This document shows positions 31,993-64,000 of a stretch of DNA of 64,000 bases, one piece after another (within the stretch, counting starts at the first letter, position 1; every line of letters starts with the position of its first letter). The notes under the pieces are model-generated. The model worked only from the letters and a program-made list of their open reading frames with translations. It did not search any database and was not told where the DNA came from. This stretch comes from an uncultured delta proteobacterium (GTDB taxonomy: Bacteria; Myxococcota_A; Polyangia; Polyangiales; Polyangiaceae): positions 335,641 to 399,640 of the forward strand of contig CAWKKR010000005.1 of assembly GCA_963850305.1 (NCBI GenBank), in the 5' to 3' direction. The position numbers and the translations under genes were made by a program.

Positions 31993-32076
<84 letters not shown>

Positions 32077-50461: not shown

Positions 50462-51664
50462 TCATGCGAGTCGGCGTCCACGGCCCCCCGGGATGAGCCG
50501 AAGAGCCACCTTCCGCTCCGCCGCAGCGTCCTCGAAGCGTTGGAAGAGTTCGTCCCCTTTGGTCGCCCGACCGTAGACTTGGTCGAGCATCCTGGTCGAC
50601 GTGTGTCCCATAGCGACCGCAAGGTCCTCTTGGCGGACACCTTCATCTTTGCACCAATGGGCGAAGGTCCGTCGGAGATTGGTCAAAGTACAGTGCTCGA
50701 TCTTCGCGCGCTTGCAGGCTTCGTTCATCGCGCGCCGAGCGTTCGACCAGGCTGAGAACAACAGGCCGTCCTCACCATCGGCGTGGGTACGCACGAGCTT
50801 TAGCAGCTCGTGCTGCCAATCGAAGAGCAAGGGCACAAGGCGCTCGCGTGTACGTCGCTTCGTTCCGTGGATCGGAATCATCCGCGCTTTGGAGTCGGCG
50901 ACGTCCGTTCTCAGGGCACGCTGGACGGCACGCAGTTCGGCTCCGGTCGCGAGCACGTAAGCGGCGATCGCGGCCCGCGCCTCGTCGAGAAAACCCCCGA
51001 GCAGCGCCTTGGCCTCTTCGTGCGTGAGGTGGTGTTCACCGGGCTCGTAGTTCGTCTCGAAGCCGGGAGGGACAACGACATCTAGATCGCCCGTCCACAG
51101 ACCCTGCCGTTTCGCAAGCCGCAGCGCCGGCCGCAATGTCGTGCGCTCTTTGCTGATCGTGTAGTCGTCCACGTTCCCGCGGCGCCATGTGACGAATCGG
51201 TCCACGAAACCGGCGTCGACGCCCGCAAGCGAGAACGATTGGCCCGCCTCGATTAGCCCCGCACTCTCTTCCTTTGTGAGCTGGCGCGGAGGTCTTCGAT
51301 CTTCGCTCTTCGTCTCGGCTGCCTCGTACGCCGCGAAGAGATACCAGCTCTTCGCCTTCTTTTCGTAGAAGATCACGGTGTCGTCGCTCTTCGGGTTTTT
51401 CGCCCGCTTCGTTTGGGATCGTCGGTCCTCGACGAGTAGATCGATCGCTTGTTTCAGCGTCGCACCCTGCTCTCGACGCTTCTGGGCCGCCGCGGTCGGA
51501 TCGGCTGCTTCTAACTCCCATTGAGTGAGCTGCTTGCGGGCAGCTTCCTTCCTCGTCTGGCGCGTCGATCGTTTCTCTTGCTTATACTTCCCATTGGGGC
51601 CTCGCGTGTTGACCCAGGCGTACCAAACGCCGCCTGGGCGTCGGCGAAACAGGTGCTCGCTCAT
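50462..51664 (-). CDS. tyrosine recombinase/integrase
   Basis: N-terminal arm-binding-like WYA..KRSTR; HGTK, NLRRTFA, MGHTSTRML..VY; adjacent to the att site. Confidence 0.88.
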   Translation of the reverse strand: MSEHLFRRRPGGVWYAWVNTRGPNGKYKQEKRSTRQTRKEAARKQLTQWELEAADPTAAAQKRREQGATLKQAIDLLVEDRRSQTKRAKNPKSDDTVIFYEKKAKSWYLFAAYEAAETKSEDRRPPRQLTKEESAGLIEAGQSFSLAGVDAGFVDRFVTWRRGNVDDYTISKERTTLRPALRLAKRQGLWTGDLDVVVPPGFETNYEPGEHHLTHEEAKALLGGFLDEARAAIAAYVLATGAELRAVQRALRTDVADSKARMIPIHGTKRRTRERLVPLLFDWQHELLKLVRTHADGEDGLLFSAWSNARRAMNEACKRAKIEHCTLTNLRRTFAHWCKDEGVRQEDLAVAMGHTSTRMLDQVYGRATKGDELFQRFEDAAAERKVALRLIPGGRGRRLA

Positions 51665-52290
51665 TGGTCGAACGTCCTTTTCGCGTAACGCTCCCAAACC
51701 TCGACGAGTACGCGGAGGCTCTTGCCTGTCCCGTTCACCCGACCCGATGCCTCGCGGAGATGACGGTATGCGGTCGACTTGGAGCAATCGAGTGCGTCCA
51801 TGACGTCTTTCATGCCCACGTAATGCGAGAGACGCGGTGTTCTCTCTGAGCGCTTCGGCTGCTGTCCACCGTCGGCCTTACGCTCGCGCGATCTCGTTGG
51901 TCGTGCAGTAGGGGCGGTCGGCAACGCATCGGTAACGAACGTCGGCAACTCTCGCGACGCTGCGCCCGTGAACACGTCGTTCGGGTCCTTCGTGCTCTTC
52001 ACGCCTTCGAGCTTCGCCGCGAGCGCCGTGGCTAGGTCATCACGACCAGTCAATATCGCCTCGTGAACTCTCGCCTCCTCCTCGTGCTCGAGTTCGCGAA
52101 TATGCTGGTCGACGAATTCCCCCACGAAATCGATCGCGTCGAAGACAGCGATGACCGTGTCTGCTCCCGCAGCCAGGAACATGCCGCCGTCGCCCTCGTC
52201 GGCGATCGCGGCGTGCGCCGGAAGGGGCGCGAGATCGATCCCCGCCCAATCGGTCGCAGCGGCGGGGTTCTCTGCTAAGTTGTGATCCAT
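51661..52290 (-). CDS. excisionase/AlpA-like HTH protein
   Basis: C-terminal VGMKDVMDALDCSKSTAYRHL; its stop overlaps the integrase start. Confidence 0.6.
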   Translation of the reverse strand: MDHNLAENPAAATDWAGIDLAPLPAHAAIADEGDGGMFLAAGADTVIAVFDAIDFVGEFVDQHIRELEHEEEARVHEAILTGRDDLATALAAKLEGVKSTKDPNDVFTGAASRELPTFVTDALPTAPTARPTRSRERKADGGQQPKRSERTPRLSHYVGMKDVMDALDCSKSTAYRHLREASGRVNGTGKSLRVLVEVWERYAKRTFDQ

Positions 52291-52357
52291 CGGCGAGGTC
52301 CTTTCGTCGGTCATGCCCCCGGCGTTTCGAGCGCGCGGGGGCTTCTTTTTACCATGG

Positions 52358-52934
52358 CTAGGCGGCAACGGCCCGTGACGCTCCGAGGCGCAAATCGCCG
52401 CCAAGCAGCCGCGCCAGCACGACAACGAGCGCGCCCGCGGCGAAGCCTCCGATGTGATCCCCGAACGAAACGCCCTCAGCGCCCGAGACCCCGAAGGCGT
52501 GCAGGATGTTGCTCGCGACGAGCACCGCGACGAACGCGAGCATCGCCGGCCCGTAGAGCGTCGCGGCGACCGCGAGGACCGCGAATAGAGCGCCACTGCA
52601 CCCGACCAGAGGCACCGTCGAACTCCGGGTCGACGACCACATGCAGCGCCGCCCCGGCGAGCCCCCCGGCAAGGAAGAGCATCGCGAACCGCGTCGAGCC
52701 GATCGCCCGCTCGACAAGCGAGCCGACGAAGAGCAGGACGGCGACGTTGCCGCCGACGTGGAGAACGCCGCTCGGGTCGTGAACGAACAAGCTCGAAAGC
52801 GCCGTGCCGAGGCTCGGGTGCGCCCGGATCATGAGGCCGCTGCTTCCGGTGCCGCAGATGTACGTGCCGTCCTTCGGGGCTTGCTCACCGCATCTCCGAC
52901 ACGCTTCTGCGAAGGAAGCTGACTGCGATCGCAA
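52358..52934 (-). pseudogene. rhomboid intramembrane serine protease, frameshifted
   Basis: SLFVH...HVGGN...ER in one frame; VGCSG and DHIGG in another; shift near 52622. Confidence 0.8.
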
Positions 52935-53952: not shown

Positions 53953-55443
53953 ATGACCCGGGCGGACCACGACGACAACACGACCGAGCTGCTCGACCCC
54001 CTCGTCGCGCGGGCCCGCCAGCGCGTCGGCAGCGTGCTCAAAGAGAAGTGGCGCCTCGACGTCCTTCTCGGTGTCGGCGGCATGGCGGCCGTCTATGCAG
54101 CCACGCATCGCAACGGCAGTCGCGTGGCGATCAAGATCCTTCACCCGGAGCTGAGCGTCAGCGCCGACGTGCGCACGCGCTTCATGCGCGAGGGCTACGC
54201 GGCCAACGCCGTCGGTCACGACGGAGTCGTCCGCGTCTCCGACGACGATGTCTCCGACGACGGGTCCGCGTTCCTTGTGATGGAACTCCTCGATGGCGAA
54301 ACGCTCGAGGACCGCCGCCAACGTAACGGAGGCCGCCTCAGCGAAGACGAAGTGCTATCCGTCGCCGACCAACTCCTCGATGTGCTCGTGGCCGCGCACG
54401 CCAAGGGGATCATCCACCGAGACCTCAAGCCCGAGAACGTCTTCATTGCCCGCGATGGCCGCGTGAGGGTTCTCGATTTCGGCATCGCGCGCCTCCGGGA
54501 GATGTCCGGCGCGAGCCACGCGACGCGCACCGGCTTCTCGATGGGCACGCCCGCATACATGGCGCCCGAGCAAGCGCGTGCGCTATGGAACGAAGTCGAT
54601 GGGAGAACCGATCTCTGGTCGCTCGGTGCGACGCTGTTCTCGCTTCTTTCAGGCAGAGAAGTTCATTCCGGGCGCACCGCCAACGAGGTCCTCATCATGG
54701 CAGCGACGCAGCCCGCGCCGCCGCTCGCGTCGGTCTTGCCGGAAGTGAGCCCCGCAGTTGCGCGGGTCGTGGACAAGGCCGTGGCATTCGAGCGCGATCA
54801 TAGGTGGCGGGACGCCGCGACGATGCAGGAGGCCGTGCGGTCCGCGTACCACGATCGGCACGGCACGCCGTTCCCCACGGCTTCGCAGCTCACGGTTCCC
54901 CCGACGGTCGTGAATCGGACGTTGGCTTCGGCGGCGGTGAGCGCCGTCTCACCCGGGGCACCGACAACGAACCGCGCGGTCGCGACTTCTCATATCGGTG
55001 CGTCGCTCGCGTCTCTTGCTGCGCGCTTCCCGAGCCTGAGCCCAATCGCCCTTGGCGTCGGTGGCGCTGTGATCGTCGCCGCGATCATCGTTGGCGTGGT
55101 TCTCGTGTCAAGCGGAAGCAAAGCCCCGGCGCCACCGGCGGCGGCGACAACGACGGTTGCCGCTAGACCCGAGCCATCGGCCCCGAGAATCGCCTCGAGC
55201 TCGCCCGCGACGGCAGCGGCTCCCGAACCGAATGCCGCGCCGACAATCGCAGTGACCGATCTGCCGACGGAGACCGCTCCGGCGGTCACAATCGTGAAGC
55301 CGGCACCAAAGCCTCGAGTCCTGGCCCCGACGCCTGCGGCTCCGACAGCGACAACGGCGAAGACGGCAAAACCCGACTGTAGCCCGCCGTACGTGCTCGA
55401 CCCCGTGACTGGGACGAAAAAATGGAAGCCAGCATGTTTCTAG
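53953..55443 (+). CDS. membrane serine/threonine protein kinase
   Basis: [36 protein letters not shown] helix, Pro-rich linker, C-terminal C.PPY...K.WKPAC. Confidence 0.95.
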
Positions 55444-55445
55444 CG

Positions 55446-56304
55446 GTGCGAACCCGAACGGCGCTTCTCGCCGCGGCAGCGGTGGCCGTGGCCAGATCCG
55501 CGGTCGCGACCGAACCAGCGCCGACGAAGGCGGAATGCATCGCTGCGAGCGAGTCTGGCCAGGACCTTCGCCACGCGGGGAAGCTCAACGATGCCCGCAC
55601 GCAGTTCGCGGTCTGCGTGGCGGCGAGCTGCCCGGGGCCGATCCGCGACGACTGCGCGCAGCGCCTGAACGAGATCGGAAAGGCGACGCCCTCGGTCGTG
55701 TTCGAGGTGAAGGACGCGACCGGCAACGACGTGCCGGGCGTGGCGATCACGATGGACGGGCAATCCGTTGCGGGCGTCGGCACGGCTATCGAGCTCGACC
55801 CTGGCGAGCACACGTTCAGCTTCGAAGTAGCGGGGCTCCCGAAGATCGAGAAGCGACTCGTCATCGCCGAGGGAGTGAAGCAACGGCGCGAGGTCGTCAT
55901 CATGGATCCCGCGCTGAAGCGGCGCAGACCGCGAACACGGAATCACCAACGACGGGCGAGGAGCCCGCGCGATCAGCGGGTCTGCCGACTCTCGCTTGGG
56001 TGGCGTTCGGGGTCGGTGGTGCGGGGTTGCTGCTCGGCATGACTGCCGGTCTCGTCGCCGGAGCGAAGCACTCATCGCTTTCGAACGTCTGCAACGACAC
56101 CGCCGGCACCTGCCCACCGACGTACAGCGACGACCTCGACTCCTTCCACACGTGGCGAACGGTTTCGACCGTCGGCTACGTCGTCGGTGTGCTCGGTGTC
56201 GCGGGCGGTACAGTCCTGTGGCTGACAGCGCCGAAGGCGTCGAGCACGATGACGGCGCGTGTGTGGCTCGGGTCGGGTCGGCGGGGATTGCGGGGAGGTT
56301 CTGA
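55446..56304 (+). pseudogene. PEGA-like exported protein, frameshifted
   Basis: signal peptide, Cys motif, IELDPGEH; the frame changes near 55905 and 56272 to give hydrophobic segments and the GIAGRF end. Confidence 0.7.
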
Positions 56305-57024
56305 ATGCGCCTGTGGTTGCCGATCGTGCTCGCTTTGCCTTTGGTGGTGACGGCGTGTCCGGCGCTGCTTAGCGACTGGAAGGTCAGCGGGAGAGGCGCG
56401 GGCGATGCCTCCGTTGACGCCACCGGTCCCGGGGCCGGCGGCTCATCGGGATCGAATGGCGGCTCGTCGTCGGGCGGATCATCCAGCTCGGGCGGCGTAG
56501 ATGGGGGTTTGTTGCACAGCGAGAATGGTCTTGACGGAGAGGCGAATGGTGCTGGCGGTTCTATCAATGCGTGCGCGACGGGTACAGTTCGTTGCTTGGA
56601 GGCGCAACCGCAGACGTGCGTGAGCGGCGTTTGGCTCGCGAACGGGGCGGCGTGCTCGGGATCAACGCCCGTGTGTTTGAATTCGAATGGAGGCTGCGTG
56701 ACGTGCAATCCAGGCAGTCGGTCATGTGCAAGTCAGACCCAGCCCGAGACGTGCGATGCATCCGGTTCGTGGGCGGCGGGCACCGATTGTCCGACGGCGA
56801 CTCCGTTGTGCTCCGAGGGGGCGTGCGCGGCCATTTGCTGTAAGTCTACGACCGACACGACAGTTCTGTCGTGTGATCTCGCCAACTCCAGCACCCAATG
56901 GGACTGTCTAAGCGGTAGTGCATGGGGTCTGTGCGGAGAACCCGGTCACTGCACTAGCACTGGCCTCACGTGTGGCGTGGTGGGACAGCTGACGGCTACC
57001 GGAACTGTCGAAGCCTGTCCGTGA
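56305..57024 (+). CDS. Cys-rich lipoprotein
   Basis: lipobox VTAC-PALLSDWK, Gly/Ser linker, Cys repeats. Confidence 0.78.
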   Translation: MRLWLPIVLALPLVVTACPALLSDWKVSGRGAGDASVDATGPGAGGSSGSNGGSSSGGSSSSGGVDGGLLHSENGLDGEANGAGGSINACATGTVRCLEAQPQTCVSGVWLANGAACSGSTPVCLNSNGGCVTCNPGSRSCASQTQPETCDASGSWAAGTDCPTATPLCSEGACAAICCKSTTDTTVLSCDLANSSTQWDCLSGSAWGLCGEPGHCTSTGLTCGVVGQLTATGTVEACP

Positions 57025-57048
57025 TTCGCGAAAGAAGACTGAAAACCA

Positions 57049-57324
57049 ATGCGCTACGCCGACCTCAAAAAAGAACGCGACGAAGCCATCGCCCGCGCCA
57101 TCGAAGCCGAGCGACTCTCGATGAAGAGCGAGTTTGACAAGCTCGCGGCCGAGCACGAGCAAGAGCGCTTCAGGTCGCTTGCGTTGGTCGAATCCGGAAC
57201 ACGCGAGCGCGCGCTCGACGTCGCGGGCGGCGCAGTCCTCTGGCTGACGACGCCGACGGCACGCGACGCGACAGCGACGGGCAGGCTCGGACTCGCGTCC
57301 GCGGGGCGCGCGGGGAGGTTCTGA
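57049..57324 (+). pseudogene. chimeric ORF ending in a remnant of a PEGA-gene paralog
   Basis: VAGGAVLWLT...AGRF* is paralogous to the 3' end of the 55446-56304 gene. Confidence 0.55.
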
Positions 57325-59129
57325 TGCGCGCCTCGCTCGTGATCGCGCTCGCACTCCCGCTCGCGCTCACCGGATGCCCGGCGTTGCTCTCTGATTGGAA
57401 GATCAGCGGCGGCGGCGCGGGCGATGCCTCGGTTGACACCACCACGGGTGGGGTGTCCGGCAACGGTGGAGTCGGCGGCGCGACGAGCACCGGTGGCGCG
57501 ACGAGCACCGGTGGCGCGACCGCTACGGGGGGAGCCGGCGGAACCGCGGGAAGCGGAGGCGCGGTCAGCACCGGTGGAACGGATGGCGGCCCGGGAGACG
57601 GCACGGCGGTTGGGAATCTTGGAGACGCGTGTCCAGAGAACGCCGCCACCGCGTGCAATGGCCAGGCGCAGCAGCAGCAGCTCGTCTGCGTGAACCACGT
57701 CTGGGGCGGCAACGGGAAGTGCACCGGCAACAACAACTGCGACAGCGCGCCGGGAGCGACTGCCGGGACTTGTCAGCCCGTCGTGGCCGAGTGCATCGGT
57801 AAGCAACCGGGAAACGTGCTGTGCCAGGGCATGAACCGCGTCGCGTGCGGCCCGGACCTCGTGACGACAACTCCGGTGGACACATGCGCTGCGGACACTC
57901 AGACGTGCGTGAACGGTGTCTGCGTGACGTGCGGCGCCGGGACGGCGAACTGCGACGGGAACGCGACGGACTGCGAGACGAACCTGAACTCGACGGCGAC
58001 GTGCGGGACGACGTGCGTGAACAAGGTGGCTTGCTCGACGGCGAACGGGACGGCTTCGTGTAGCACGGGAGCGTGCGTGGTCGCGAGCTGCAACAGTGGG
58101 TACGTCGACTGCGACGGACTAACCGGCAACGGGTGCGAGACGAACCTGAACGACCCCGCGACGTGCGGGACGACGTGCTTGACCAACGTGGCCTGCGCGG
58201 CCCCCACTCCCGCGTGCAGCGCCGGCACCTGCGTCGCGCCTCCGAGCTGCCAGGGCCTGCCCGCCACGTGCGGCCCTTCCGGGAATGAGTCGTGCTGCAC
58301 GAGCCCGCTGGTGACGGGTGGGACGTTCTACCGGAGCTACGACGGCGTGACATCCGGCTACACGAGCGAGGCGTACCCGGCGACGGTGAACAATTTCCTG
58401 CTCGACAAGTACGAGATCACGGTGGGGCGGTTCCGGAAGTTCGTGGCGGCGTATTCGCAGAGCATGATCGCGGCGGGTGCCGGCAAGAACCCGAACAACG
58501 CGAGCGACCCGGGCTGGGACACGGCGTGGAACGCAAGCCTGCCCGCTGACGCGGCGGCGCTTCAGACCGCCATCGCGTGCAACGCGACGTACCAGACGTG
58601 GACCCCGAGGGGGGAACGACAACCGGCCGATGAACTGCATCGACTGGTACGAGGCGAACGCCTTCTGCATCTGGGACGGCGGACGTCTGCCGACGGAAGC
58701 AGAGTGGAACTACGCGGCGGCAGGAGGGACCGACCAGCGGGTGTACCCGTGGGGCGCGACGGCACCGGGAGCGAACGCGGCTCTGGCCGTGTACAGCTGC
58801 TACTACAACGGAGCTGGGAGCTGCTCGGGAGTCACAACGTCGCTCCCGTGGGCTCCGTGAGCGCCGGCAACGGCAAGTATGGGCAGGCGGACCTTGCCGG
58901 CAACGTCTCGGAGTGGACGCTGGACTGGTATGCGAGCCCCTACTCGCAGACGTCGTGCACAAACTGTGCCGATACAACAGCAGCCGCGTACCGGGTCATC
59001 CGCGGCGGGGGCTTCGACGACATTGCGTCGTACCTGCTCTCGTCGTTCCGCAGCTACAACGGCCCGACGGGCCACAGCTTCAACTTCGGTTCCCGGTGCG
59101 CCAGGACACCCGTAGCAGATCGGGCATGA
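57324..59129 (+). CDS. DGR target: Cys-rich lipoprotein with a C-terminal FGE-sulfatase/C-type lectin-fold domain (two compensating frameshifts)
   Basis: lipobox LTGC; LDKYEITVGRF; PMNCIDWYEA.AFC.WDGGRLPTEAEW..AA in the alternative frame (about 58610-58835); DLAGNVSEW, RVIRGG, GSRCAR. Confidence 0.88.
   Translation: MRASLVIALALPLALTGCPALLSDWKISGGGAGDASVDTTTGGVSGNGGVGGATSTGGATSTGGATATGGAGGTAGSGGAVSTGGTDGGPGDGTAVGNLGDACPENAATACNGQAQQQQLVCVNHVWGGNGKCTGNNNCDSAPGATAGTCQPVVAECIGKQPGNVLCQGMNRVACGPDLVTTTPVDTCAADTQTCVNGVCVTCGAGTANCDGNATDCETNLNSTATCGTTCVNKVACSTANGTASCSTGACVVASCNSGYVDCDGLTGNGCETNLNDPATCGTTCLTNVACAAPTPACSAGTCVAPPSCQGLPATCGPSGNESCCTSPLVTGGTFYRSYDGVTSGYTSEAYPATVNNFLLDKYEITVGRFRKFVAAYSQSMIAAGAGKNPNNASDPGWDTAWNASLPADAAALQTAIACNATYQTWTPRGERQPADELHRLVRGERLLHLGRRTSADGSRVELRGGRRDRPAGVPVGRDGTGSERGSGRVQLLLQRSWELLGSHNVAPVGSVSAGNGKYGQADLAGNVSEWTLDWYASPYSQTSCTNCADTTAAAYRVIRGGGFDDIASYLLSSFRSYNGPTGHSFNFGSRCARTPVADRA
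58978..59106 (+). repeat. DGR variable repeat (VR)
   Basis: 129-bp ungapped match to 59760-59888 with 20 mismatches, all at codon positions 1-2. Confidence 0.9.
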
Positions 59130-59204
59130 ATGTTGCTTGTTCGCGCGGATCGTCACCAACCCCTGATCCCTTGAATCCTGAACCCCTGAAAATTCCGAGG
59201 AAGC

Positions 59205-59717
59205 GTGAGCCACGAGCCGGATGCGAAGCAAGGGTCGGATGACGTCGCCGCAGGCAAGGAGCCGGGCGGGTCTTCGTCCGGGAGCCGAGCGAGCGGAGCG
59301 AGCGAGGCTCGCCCTGCGCGGGGCCGTGGCGGCTCCGCGCCCGCCGTTGCGGCGCTCCGGATGGAAAGCGTTTCGCTCTGGGTCGTGCAGCGGGTGGAGG
59401 CTTTCCCGCGCAGTCACCGGTTCACCATCGGCGACCGCTGGATAGAGACCTGCCTCGACGCGCAGACGAGCCTCGTCGAGGCGAGCTACGTCCGCGACAA
59501 GCGCGGGCTCCTGCTCGGCGCTTCGCGGGCGCTCGTGCGCGGCCGCGTGCTCGCTCGGATGGCCGCCGCGCTCCGCGCCATCTCGCTCGATCAGGAGGCG
59601 CACTTCGCTCGCGAGTCGGGCGAGATTGGCCGCATGATAGGCGGCTGGCTGCGCGCCCTCCGGGGAAGCGATGCGCGCGCGGCATCTAAGAACGTCGGGG
59701 TCGCCGGTACTCCATGA
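59205..59717 (+). CDS. avd: DGR accessory protein Avd (four-helix bundle)
   Basis: FPRSHRFTIGDR and EIGRMIGGW motifs; lies between the VR and the TR-like copy; start could be 59361. Confidence 0.9.
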   Translation: MSHEPDAKQGSDDVAAGKEPGGSSSGSRASGASEARPARGRGGSAPAVAALRMESVSLWVVQRVEAFPRSHRFTIGDRWIETCLDAQTSLVEASYVRDKRGLLLGASRALVRGRVLARMAAALRAISLDQEAHFARESGEIGRMIGGWLRALRGSDARAASKNVGVAGTP

Positions 59718-59734
59718 TGATCTCATGGAGTACC
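59706..59734. other. perfect 12-bp hairpin at the avd stop, 5' of the TR
   Basis: GGTACTCCATGA-TGATC-TCATGGAGTACC. Confidence 0.85.
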
Positions 59735-59759
59735 TTCGGTCCCGCGGGGGCGGGGCGGG

Positions 59760-59888
59760 CAGCAGCCACGAACCGGGTCATCCGCGGCGGGAGCTTCAGC
59801 AACCATGCGTCGTACCTGCTCTCGTCGAACCGCATCTACAGCGGCCCGACGAGCCGCAGCAGCGGCAACGGTTCCCGGTGCGCCAGGA
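59760..59888 (+). repeat. DGR template-repeat-like copy (TR)
   Basis: intergenic, directly after avd; carries A at 12 of the 20 mismatches with the VR. Confidence 0.85.
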
Positions 59889-60138
59889 GTGCGCCGTGAG
59901 CGCGTCCAGGTGGTCCGGAGCGAGCGATGACGCCGCAGAACCTGGGGGGCGCGAATCCCCTCCGACCAGGCCGAGCCGGGTCACCGCGGCTCCGTGCGTC
60001 CGAGCGCAGGAAGCGCCGTAGAGCCTGCCGTTCCCTCGCGGGTGCTGTCTCGGCCTCCTCGCGGCCCTGGCCTCCGAGGTTTCCGTTGACCATGGCGCTC
60101 GGCGGGCGTGTACTTCCGGATCAACGCAGGGGTTTTCC

Positions 60139-61140
60139 GTGCAGATGATTGTCCGGCGCATCGTCGTGCCAGGAGTTCTCCTGGCCGCTCTCTCGTTCAC
60201 CGGCAACGTTGCCGCCCAGGCCGCAACGAGCAGCGCGGAGGCCGAGGCCCTCTTCGATGCGGGCCGTGCTGCCCTCGATCGGAAAGATTATGCCACCGCC
60301 TGCGAGCGGTTCGCCGGGTCGAACAAGCTGGAGCCCGCGGTCGGGACCGTGTTGAACCTCGCCTACTGCAATGAAATGCAGGGCAAGCTCGCCACGGCGT
60401 GGGCGAACTATCGTGAGGCGCTCTACAAGCTGCCCCCGGGAGACTCGCGGGCCGCCACGGCCCAGACCCGGCTCGATGCGCTCCAGCCGAGGCTCGCCTA
60501 CCTGACACTGCGGGCAGTCGGGCTGACGAAGGAGTCCACCGTGCTGCTCGATGGCGTGACGATCCCGGTCGAGGCCCTCGGTGTCCCGGTGCCGATCGAT
60601 CCGGGTCCGCACGAGGTGATCGTTCGCTCCCCAGGTCGGCAGACGGAGACCTTCGACACGACCGTGAAGGACGCCGAGAAGGCCGAGCTTGCCGTATCAC
60701 CCGGGGACTCGAACCAAGCCGCATCCTCGGCACCGATTCCGCAAGCTCCTGCTGCGACGCTCCCAAAGCCACTGGAGCAGCCAACGCCGCCGCCCGTCGA
60801 ACACGATCAAGGCAGCTCGTCCACCCTTGGCTACGTCCTCGGAGGCGTCGGCCTCGCTTCTCTGGCCACGAGCTTGGTCACAGGGCTCATGGCCCTCGGC
60901 AAGAACTCGAGCGTGAATGACCACTGCCAGGCTGCCCCCTCTGGCCCAGCACGGCTCTGCGATTCGGAGGGATTCTCCGCGGCTGCCTCGGGCAAGACGC
61001 TGGCCCTCGTGTCCGACGTCACGCTGGGCGTCGGAGTCGTGGGACTCGGGCTCGGGACGTACCTCGTTCTCACCGCGGGGGGCAGCACGAGCCGTGAAGG
61101 GCCGGCGCAGGGCTCCGTGAGCTTCACGGGGACGTTCTGA
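60139..61140 (+). CDS. TPR plus PEGA-like exported protein
   Basis: AEALFDAGR..AC.RF..S..LEP..GT.LNLA.C; PIDPGPH; hydrophobic segments, terminal GTF. Confidence 0.85.
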   Translation: MQMIVRRIVVPGVLLAALSFTGNVAAQAATSSAEAEALFDAGRAALDRKDYATACERFAGSNKLEPAVGTVLNLAYCNEMQGKLATAWANYREALYKLPPGDSRAATAQTRLDALQPRLAYLTLRAVGLTKESTVLLDGVTIPVEALGVPVPIDPGPHEVIVRSPGRQTETFDTTVKDAEKAELAVSPGDSNQAASSAPIPQAPAATLPKPLEQPTPPPVEHDQGSSSTLGYVLGGVGLASLATSLVTGLMALGKNSSVNDHCQAAPSGPARLCDSEGFSAAASGKTLALVSDVTLGVGVVGLGLGTYLVLTAGGSTSREGPAQGSVSFTGTF

Positions 61141-62584
61141 TGTTCAAGCTCGCGGTAACGACGTGGATCGCCGCCGTCGCGTTCACGACGGCCTGCACGG
61201 CGTTCGTGGACTTCAGCAACCTGGAAGCGAGGGGCTCGGACGCTGGAACCGGGGGAACACGTGCTGCGGATGCCGGCTCGGGCGGCGGAGTGTCGAGCGG
61301 GAGCGGCGGGTCGGGGGGGTTGGGCGGAGGCACCGGCGCGGGCGGCTCGTCGGGATTGGGTGGCGTGATTGGGGCCGGCGGGACGATCGGTTCGGGAGGC
61401 GCCGAGGGCAGCTCCGGCTCTGGCTCTGGCGGAACGAGTGGCGCGACGGCAACCGGTGGCGCGGCGGGGTGCGCGACTCACACCCTGCCTCCATCGGTCA
61501 ACGTCGATGCATCGCAGTGGACGGCGGAGTTCCTCACGGCGCCCACGTGGAATTGCAACGCGAGCGGGACGACGACGATCGACTCCAATGCGGGCACGAT
61601 AACGAGCACGAGCTGCGCCCTCGGCACGGTCGATTTACGAACGGCGTTACTCAACTCGACGCGAGCGGGCCGAGCGTCATGGTCGTTCGTCTACAAGGAC
61701 TCACCGTGACGAACGGCCACGTGATCCAGCTGACGGGCGACAAGCCAATCGTCTTCCTCGTAGCGGGTGATGTCGTCGTCGACACGGGCGGCAGGATCGA
61801 CGCGAGCGCGAATGGCACCGCAGCGGGGCCCGGAGGTAGCGACTCGACACGATGCACCGGCTCGACCGGCACGCCCTCTTCAGAGACGGGCATTGGCGGC
61901 GGCGGTGGAGGTTTCGGTACCGCGGGGGGGTACGGCGCCGATCTCACTGGCAGGAGCGGCAGCGCGGGAGGAGCCGTTAGCTCGATAACCAACCTTCAGC
62001 CTCTCCGTGGTGGATGTTCCGGAGGGACCGGGGGAGGGTCCCAAAACTTCACGGGCGGAGGCGGCGGTGGGGCGTTCGAGATCAGCGCGTCTGGAACGAT
62101 CACCATCGGACACTCGGGCGACACCTCGACAACGAGCGGCACGCTGAGTGCCGCTGGCGGTTACTCCCTGGGCGCGCCCAAATATACGCCCAATAGTGGC
62201 AGTGCCGGCGCGGGGAGTGGCGGTGGGATTCTCATCGTGTCACCCGCAACCGCCACGTTCGGCACCAACGGTGCGGCTCGCGCCCACGGCGGGGGGTCCG
62301 GGTCCGGATATGGCACGGACGCGGACCCAGGCGGCAACAACGGGACGAACGGGCATACCGCGGACAACACGGCGGCGGCGGGGGGTGCAGCGCCGAACAG
62401 CTACGGGGCCCCCGGCGTCAAGGGCGGGCTCTGCGCCGGCAACAACTGCTCGATCGCTTCCGCGCCGGGATCAAACGGCGCTGGCGCGGGTGATTCCGGC
62501 ATCGATCACGACGGGTCCGGCGGTGGCGGCGGTGGCGGGCGCGTCGTGGTGATGACCAGCGCGGTCACGGTCGCGTGCGACTGA
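61140..62584 (+). pseudogene. Gly-rich lipoprotein, frameshifted
   Basis: lipobox TTAC in the 61140 frame; continues in the 61163 frame after about 61636 (GGGGGGFGT.GG, LRGGCSGG, GGGGGGRV). Confidence 0.72.
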
Positions 62585-62771: not shown

Positions 62772-62880
62772 TCAGCGAGGCCCGGCGAGCGTCGTGCTCT
62801 TTCCCAATCCGGACGGAGCGAAGAGGACGGTGACGTAGATGGGACCGTCGAACGTGACGTCGATCGGAGGGAGACGACGG
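62772..62880 (-). pseudogene. fragment resembling an ABC ATPase (ModC-like) N-terminus
   Basis: IDVTF...[16 protein letters not shown]alker A-like motif followed by a stop. Confidence 0.4.
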
Positions 62881-62974
62881 TGACGCGCGAGTCTCCGGAG
62901 GCGGGGCCGTCTTTCGGCAACCGGCCGACAACGCCGCAGAGCGAAACGTCCCGCTCGAGCGGAGGCGTCGTACG

Positions 62975-63250
62975 CGCCCGCGGATTCCGGAAGCTCGACG
63001 TCGTCTCGCAAGCTCGCGCCGAGAGCGAGCCGGGCCACGCCTGGGATCGCCAGGGCCCGCGTGAGCCCGTCGCGCAACGAGAGGCCGAGGCGCGTTTCGG
63101 CGCGAACGATTCCGCGAAGCGGACCGCGGAGTCTTGCTTTTTTCATGAAGGGCTGGAGGCGCGACTCGTACCGGGCGAACGCGACTGTATGTGTCGGACC
63201 GGCCGCGAGCTCGTCGGCGAGGACATAAGCGGCGATGATCGCGAGCGTTC
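62975..63250 (-). pseudogene. C-terminal fragment of an FAD-dependent monooxygenase
   Basis: [13 protein letters not shown]...[12 protein letters not shown]...[16 protein letters not shown]-terminus missing. Confidence 0.6.
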
Positions 63251-63448
63251 TTTTAAATCTGCTACTCCGGTCAGCGTGACCAGAGTCGAGACATCGAGCG
63301 CCCGGAGGCGTCCGGGGATGGGCGTGAAGCCGCGCCACCGTGTCGGAGGCCAGGAGAAGCAAAGCCGTCCCCTTCGTCGACCCGCCGCTCCCCCGCCGTC
63401 CACGACGGCCCCGGGCCGTCAAGGACGGGGATTTTCGGTACATTTTGA

Positions 63449-64000
63449 GAAGAGCGGCACGTCACCGGCTGGGACGATCCCCGCATGCCGACCCTCGCCG
63501 GACTCCGCCGCCGCGGCTTTACGGCTGAAGCCATCCGCTCGTTCTGTGACCGCATCGGTGTCGCCCGGAAGGACGGGGTCGTGGACGTGGCGCTCCTCGA
63601 GTTCGAGCTCCGCGAGGACCTCAACAGGCGTTCGCCACGAGCGATGGCCGTGCTCAGGCCGCTCCGGCTGGTCATCGAAAACTTTCCCGAGGGAGAGGTC
63701 GAGTGGTTCGAGGCGTCGAATCATCCGGAGTTTCCAGATCGAGGTTCGAGGAAGATCCCGTTTTCCAGGGTCGTCTATGTCGAGGAAGACGATTTTCCGA
63801 GAGGCGCCGCCGAAGGGGTGGTTTCGCCTCGCCCCGGGTGCCGAGGTCAGGCTGCGGTCCGCGTGCCTCGTGCGGTGCCGCGAAGTCGTGAAGGATGAAG
63901 CTGGCCACGTCGTCGAGCTCCGGTGCACCTGGGACCCCGACTCGCGCGGAGGCATGCCGAAGGATGGACGCAAGGTAAAGGGGACGATTCACTGGGTCTC
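63449..64000 (+). pseudogene. glnS: 5'-truncated glutaminyl-tRNA synthetase (runs off the window)
   Basis: [49 protein letters not shown]; in-frame TGA at 63446, no HIGH half, frameshift near 63796. Confidence 0.85.

Follow-up and report, generated by a model that had tools for sequence, protein, structure and literature searches.

Probable relic of a diversity-generating retroelement with an adenine-depleted template-position repeat and no reverse transcriptase in a Polyangiaceae genome

The stretch of DNA analysed here, called the window below, comprises 64,000 nucleotides (G000:C5:335641-399640) of a Polyangiaceae genome that is represented by a 6.26-Mb assembly of 11 contigs with a completeness of 94.84%, and the end of the window is also the end of contig C5. 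Close to that end lies a cassette that is a diversity-generating retroelement (DGR) by descent, but not a working unit: no reverse transcriptase (RT) was found in the cassette or in the rest of the genome, the differences between the repeat in the template repeat (TR) position and the variable repeats (VRs) are not nearly confined to adenines, and a template RNA with a flanking spacer is absent. We consider it probable that the locus is a relic that lost its RT and spacer through recombination between the TR and a VR, with a TR/VR chimera left behind in the template position. The locus now likely diversifies nothing.

Layout of the cassette and its relatives

The order at this locus is a target gene with a C-terminal VR, followed by avd and by a repeat in the TR position. 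The features, in window coordinates, are as follows.

57324..59129, plus strand: target gene 1, an FGE/CLec-fold lipoprotein with an FGE-sulfatase match and a lipobox, and with about 76 codons out of frame
58978..59106, plus strand: VR1, the variable repeat that ends target 1, with a 109/129 match to 59760-59888
59205..59717, plus strand: avd, an intact bAvd-like accessory gene (PF22296), single in the genome
59760..59888, plus strand: repeat in the TR position (copy 2), adenine-depleted, with 25 A and loss of ancestral-A columns
59889..59902, plus strand: target-type 3' flank, …RSAP-stop in frame with the repeat, matching the ends of FGE paralogs on contigs C9 and C6
59903..60058, no strand: unique non-coding stretch where relatives carry the spacer RNA and then the RT, from profile and covariance searches
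60059..61255, plus strand: paralogous block with a TPR-like gene at 60139-61140, 97.2% identical to C6:118558-119754

The alignment of 58978-59106 with 59760-59888 is gapless, and 109 of the 129 bases are identical. All 20 mismatches fall at codon positions 1 and 2, in 14 codons, and none falls at position 3; these figures had been given in a preliminary description of this DNA and came out the same when recomputed. If mismatches were placed at random, the chance that all 20 would fall at codon positions 1 and 2 is (2/3)^20, or about 3e-4. The open reading frame (ORF) at 57324-59129, previously read as an FGE/CLec lipoprotein, matches the FGE-sulfatase family (PF03781) with an E-value of 4.5e-18 and 66.3 bits and has a lipobox (…LALTGC) in its N-terminus, and VR1 is a C-terminal VR in a CLec/FGE-type target, the family being given by the Pfam match and the fold being predicted. 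The ORF at 59205-59717, likewise taken for an Avd before, matches bAvd (PF22296) with 41.7 bits, above the cut-off of 40.

Homologs of the window Avd were collected from genome contigs, metagenome contigs and one genome of the same family (G027), and the nearest ones belong to Polyangiaceae or Myxococcales metagenome-assembled genomes (MAGs). Identity of the window Avd is 62% to that of locus L012, 59% to that of L013 and 87%, over a partial sequence, to that of L014, and it ranges from 50 to 87% among the RT-bearing relatives. The metagenome scan gave no Avd above 68% identity to the window Avd, and no Avd was found in the 6 genomes of the same genus. A comparison with related loci had been suggested as a check, and it shows that in L012, L013 and L011 the target, avd and TR are followed by an RVT_1 gene (E 3e-23, 4.7e-24 and 3.9e-20, respectively). 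Of 158 loci with an Avd match in all, 85 have at least 2.5 kb of downstream sequence, and 81 of these carry an RT. The assignment of the locus to a DGR cassette is therefore upheld, with its target, avd and TR-position repeat in the same order as in relatives that carry an RT.

Canonical chromosomal DGRs with CLec/FGE targets have the order target-avd-TR-RT, in the outline given by Wu et al. 2018 (PMC5758913), and are represented here by L012, L013, L011 and L100. The window locus resembles them in the C-terminal VR within an FGE/CLec domain, in the bAvd gene followed about 40 nt later by a TR-position repeat, in variable sites at codon positions 1 and 2 of AAC-type codons, in the GC-rich invariant 20 nt after the last variable site and in the presence of a second, remote target. 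However, it differs from them by having no RT, no structured spacer and, in the template position, an adenine-depleted copy with a target-type 3' end.

Past activity of the element

A search for further VR or TR copies had also been proposed, and a search of the whole assembly with copy 2 revealed a third copy at C9:81694-81831, 82% identical to copy 2. This copy forms the 3' end of an intact FGE lipoprotein paralog of 429 aa, which matches PF03781 at 143.1 bits, against 66.3 bits for target 1. Variation among the three copies is limited to 29 of 129 columns, with 16 at codon position 1, 13 at position 2 and none at position 3. When a boundary column is included, for a total of 130 columns, 24 of the 30 variable columns coincide with the 34 columns that have an A in the TRs of at least 3 of 4 relatives.

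In the part that precedes the VR, target 1 matches the C9 paralog at 82.9% identity, with 126 mismatches in 735, whereas only 5 differences separate VR1 from the C9 VR among the 95 non-adenine columns. The two VRs differ from each other at positions of AAC codons in the relatives' templates, and VR1 carries a base other than A at 18 of the 34 columns that have A in the relatives' TRs, with 3 private changes at the other 95. Since the VRs agree at non-adenine columns far better than the surrounding genes do, the genes diverged first, and a single adenine-rich template later served to rewrite both ends. The element thus once wrote two VRs from a single adenine-rich template, VR1 locally and the C9 VR at a distance.

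The genome holds 8 matches to FGE lipoprotein paralogs, and this abundance would suit a reading with no retroelement at all, in which ordinary paralogous 3' ends have been diversified by positive selection. We find this explanation extremely improbable, given that a bAvd gene lies between two of the copies, that the variable columns coincide with the adenine columns of the relatives' TRs as counted above, that relatives with the same layout carry RTs and that copy 2 lies outside any credible gene and has nevertheless retained the pattern.

Corruption of the template-position repeat

The repeat that occupies the TR position has 25 A, compared with 32-39 A in the aligned 127-130 nt of the TRs of four relatives. 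Its base is other than A at 13 of the 34 ancestral-A columns, and it has 0 private changes at the other 95 (Fisher 3.9e-9). Four of these 13 non-A states are common to all three copies and are probably states of the lineage, and the changes that are clearly private to copy 2 number seven, five from A to G, one from A to C and one from A to T. The mismatches between copy 2 and the VRs are also distributed differently from those of a working element. Against VR1, 12 of 20 lie at adenines of copy 2, 6 lie at adenines of VR1 and 2 at neither, and against the C9 VR the corresponding numbers are 14 of 25, 5 and 6. The share of mismatches at the adenines of copy 2 is then 56-60%, compared with 162 of 166 TR-VR mismatches on TR adenines in ten related loci. 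A DGR copies the non-adenine positions of its template faithfully. The VRs disagree with copy 2 at non-adenine sites, and therefore the present copy 2 was not their last template. Neither the 12/20 adenine share nor the copy on C9 had been noticed in the preliminary description, and the same holds for the out-of-frame codons of target 1 considered further below.

A relative that is about 93% alike and spans avd and the TR, known from contigs of four metagenome runs, offers the closest comparison for this repeat. One of these contigs, with a length of 1798 nt, extends 1298 nt beyond the TR. Eight of the listed differences fall inside the repeat (59799, 59804, 59813, 59835, 59837, 59841, 59844 and 59853), and at all of them the relative has A and copy 2 has another base; the other two listed differences are upstream of the repeat. 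Past 59883, the relative reads GAAGACC…CTCGCGAGGAGGTC, the canonical TR flank of this clade, whereas copy 2 continues as …AGGAGTGCGCCGTGA, with RSAP-stop in frame, which is the 3' end of the paralogous genes on C9 and C6. In addition, no difference separates the TR-position copy from the C9 VR over the 32 nt that follow the last variable site. From this combination of a template position, VR-type adenine losses and a target-type end, we infer that copy 2 is a TR/VR chimera.

A copy with losses at adenines could also arise if the template had been destroyed by the element's own chemistry. In that case, adenine-mutagenised cDNA would have homed into the TR, whose end is identical to that of a VR for at least 32 nt, in a natural "template suicide", and the RT and the spacer would have been lost in a separate, later event. 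It would fit with this that the private changes of copy 2 occur only at ancestral-A columns, read on the plus strand, with 0 of 95 elsewhere, and the 32-nt identity between the TR position and the C9 VR implies that donor and recipient may be poorly distinguished. Doulatov and colleagues reportedly found in 2004 that replacement of IMH* with IMH, the initiation of mutagenic homing sequence, made the Bordetella phage TR mutable. In some of the DGRs treated by Wu et al. 2018 (PMC5758913), IMH and IMH* do not differ. If it does occur, such self-homing would erode the very adenines on which a DGR depends. However, cDNA copied from the TR would not yield the target-type …RSAP-stop flank seen here, unlike the canonical flank kept by the closest relative, and two events would be needed where the deletion model needs one. 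Both the overwriting of the template by its own cDNA and the later loss of the RT and spacer that goes with it therefore seem rather unlikely to us.

Absence of the reverse transcriptase and of the spacer RNA

The preliminary description had seen no RT-like ORF in the window and had asked for a search of the genome. A search with RVT_1 (PF00078) returned 0 matches at E<=0.1 in the whole genome, window included. Queries of the same genome by tblastn with the RTs of three relatives reached a best E-value of 0.38, and the RT of G027 had no match in it.

The template RNA is affected as well. In the relatives, which form a Myxococcota-type DGR clade, a conserved structured spacer of about 190 nt stands directly after the TR, with 30 predicted pairs, 15 of which show compensatory changes; its positions include L011:992-1183, L012:6652-6840, L013:4310-4505 and L093:764-961. 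A covariance model of this spacer, R1, scores 90.7-151.2 bits in 11 relatives, L093 and L101 being among those scored but outside the set from which the model was built. No Rfam family reached its gathering score at the L011 and L012 loci. In the window, R1 gave no match after copy 2, the best score in 57000-62000 being 14.9 bits and located elsewhere in that interval, and across the genome nothing scored above 21.3 bits. A nhmmer profile that combined the TR and spacer of 12 relatives had just three matches in the genome, one at each of the known copies, and at copy 2 the match stops at node 182 of 408, around window position 59920 and about 30 nt past the repeat.

Six-frame reading of 59880-60160 for an RT remnant gave no …RLRAWLAHARHGHTR… motif of the kind that L014 keeps, comparison of 59889-60075 by blastn and tblastx with the collected loci and the genome itself returned noise only, and 59903-60058 has no other copy in the genome or the collected loci. 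In a check for hairpins, the DNA folds predicted for the 121 nt that follow each of VR1, copy 2 and the C9 VR did not surpass those of shuffled sequences (z 0.93, -0.82 and -0.76, respectively).

One of the two readings offered in the preliminary description was that of a non-autonomous cassette served in trans, in which a DGR RT, perhaps with a master TR, would reside in an unassembled part of the genome and copy 2 would be another recipient. About 5% of the marker genes are missing, the breaks of two contigs coincide with the 3' end of an FGE paralog, avd is an intact ORF, and in Thiohalocapsa, as far as it is described by Doré et al. 2024 (PMC10907252), a complete locus accompanies degenerate ones of its class, all of which would be in line with such an arrangement. 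Still, the 6.26 Mb of assembly hold no RT, no second avd, no second TR and no spacer, the VR-like sequence of the FGE paralog found at the contig breaks is quite dissimilar, and the VRs mismatch copy 2 at non-adenines. Moreover, the local copy lacks the spacer RNA that was kept in all the relatives examined, so it could not be the template itself. We therefore see service in trans as improbable. The other reading, that of a recently disabled DGR, fits the absence of RT and spacer together with the corrupted template copy.

In L014, a Myxococcales MAG contig that is the closest deposited relative, the RT has been destroyed too. In the region L014:448-1811, only about 45 of its C-terminal residues (…RLRAWLAHARHGHTRRLVQRELQRLTF-stop) are left, at 675-794 of the minus strand, beside a YhgA-like transposase gene (PF04754, E 2e-40). 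Unlike the locus in the window, L014 has a TR that is still AAC-rich (36 A) and a spacer that scores 151.2 bits, L014 having been used in building the model; thus the RT was lost there without corruption of the template. L095, a relative from a metagenome with an Avd 68% identical to that of the window, carries at 1261-1394 a TR with just 26 A and with 13 of 15 mismatches at TR adenines, and no RT is present in its 1.5 kb of downstream sequence. This TR may be another decaying copy.

A recombination model for the loss

Our preferred explanation is that the TR recombined homologously with the VR of another target, a second one that would have stood downstream of the RT, the two repeats forming direct repeats of about 130 nt. 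Such an event would have removed the spacer and the RT along with the body of this second target, and would have left behind the TR/VR chimera together with the stop codon, the flank and the neighbouring TPR-like gene of that target. A similar arrangement is seen on C6, where the same TPR-like gene lies 15 nt downstream of another FGE paralog. A single recombination event would in this way account for four observations. After the deletion, VR1 and the C9 VR would have been frozen, and the genes that carry them would now behave like any other lipoprotein gene. Target 1 may even have acquired frameshifts already.

The gene that occupies the RT position had been described as an unrelated TPR/PEGA gene. 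It is indeed unrelated to the retroelement, and the paralogous block at 60059..61255 is outside it. The sole Pfam match of 60139-61140 is a weak one to TPR_MalT (E 0.0062).

Target 1 as assembled has its roughly 76 codons at about 58607-58836 in the wrong frame. An ORF in an alternative frame, 58477-58860, covers positions 72-139 of the FGE profile with 68.3 bits, and alignment with the paralog shows a gap of 5 nt near 58606 and, near 58835, a shift of 1 nt. The extra bases at these sites are present in the relatives' contigs. The frameshifts could be due to decay or to assembly error.

Several points weigh against the recombination model. With 94.84% completeness and 11 contigs, the RT may simply be unassembled. 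Contigs C5 and C2 start exactly at the 3' end (…GSRCAR) of another FGE paralog, a place where a DGR cassette could follow, although the VR-like sequence of that paralog had no match in the repeat search. The 156 nt between the flank and the C6-like block (59903-60058) are left without explanation. We infer the deletion itself, and in none of the relatives was a second target observed beyond the RT. Reads of the organism itself were not found; the run search gave four freshwater metagenome runs from one study, sharing 5-7% of the sampled words, and the contigs of these runs that cover the locus belong to relatives about 93% alike, none being at least 99% alike. The intact avd ORF suggests either recent loss or continuing use. 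Regarding the quality of the assembly, an alignment of the near-identical ends of C5 and C2 has 8 gap positions over its 3257 nt, and the frameshifts of target 1 may be assembly errors in a locus within 5 kb of a contig end.

Doubts of this last kind could be taken further, to an assembly artefact in which the assembler falsely fused a true TR with a VR from a target further downstream and thereby dropped what lay between them, namely spacer, RT and target body. The locus is within 4.2 kb of the contig end, contig ends here carry near-duplicate and inverted copies with indels, and the join would fall inside a repeat. However, with a similarity of only about 81-84% and exact runs that are short, the copies make a poor substrate for a false join, and the assembly has no orphan contig with an RT or a spacer. 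An artefact is, in our opinion, very unlikely.

Relation to known degenerate elements

Degenerate DGR loci have been described before. In Thiohalocapsa PB-PSB1, such loci have their machinery missing or pseudogenised, as recounted in Doré et al. 2024 (PMC10907252). As far as that account goes, the window locus is like them in that key machinery is missing while the target, VR and accessory parts are kept. The difference is that each class in Thiohalocapsa, on the same account, retains one complete locus from which the degenerate ones could be served, whereas in the window genome no complete locus or RT was found and the template is corrupted. The TR/VR chimera might be the one detail that is instructive to specialists. 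A full-text literature search, limited in extent, returned no description of a corrupted or self-mutagenised natural TR.

Surveys for DGRs start from the RT, and relics that have none are consequently missed; little has been written on how DGRs die. The end state at this locus consists of two frozen VRs, an intact avd and a copy in the template position that combines VR-type adenine losses with a target-type 3' end. If deletion between TR and VR is the correct explanation, the direct repeats that make a DGR work would be its weak point too. The locus also serves as a warning for annotation, since the synteny of target, avd and repeat does not by itself prove that a DGR is active or served in trans. 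Two quick checks are what share of the mismatches falls on TR adenines and whether the spacer RNA is there.

Genomic surroundings

The preliminary description had, in its reading of a recently disabled DGR, placed the cassette on an integrative element. This idea was rejected: composition is flat, with no step across the cassette, no tRNA gene is nearby, the nearest one being at 31993, and the sole integrase-family ORF is 5.5 kb upstream. The cassette sits inside a gene block with paralogous copies on C6 and C9, which leaves the claim of an integrative element unsupported. The integrase-family ORF (PF00589, 30.5 bits) is on the minus strand at 50462-51787, in a stretch of lower G+C content (57-63%) at 50462-52821, and 51968-52821 has a 98.2% identical copy at the end of contig C8.

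The paralogous block, composed of a kinase 3' end, small lipoproteins, an FGE lipoprotein and the TPR-like gene, is present in triplicate (C5, C6 and C9) at 80-97% identity, and its parts in the window that correspond to contigs C6 and C9 are 55000-56453, 58236-59106, 60059-61255 and 62972-63338. The 97.2% identity of the TPR-like part between C5 and C6 suggests, as judged from the sequences, a recent duplication or conversion.

Other peculiarities were observed at contig ends. Outside the window, G000:C5:1-3259 and G000:C2:1-3252 align over 3257 nt at 99.4% identity, 8 positions being gaps, and the copy of the FGE lipoprotein paralog at the start of C2 is frameshifted. This identity reflects either a recent duplication or a doubled assembly end. 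At 62880-63998 of the window, an anticodon-binding domain of class I Glu/Gln tRNA synthetases (PF03950) changes from one reading frame to another near 63890, which leaves about 110 nt to the contig end, and this split is a frameshift or an assembly error. Finally, a repeat of about 85 nt at 63365-63449 has copies with 89-98% identity in at least 8 other places on C5, C7 and C9.

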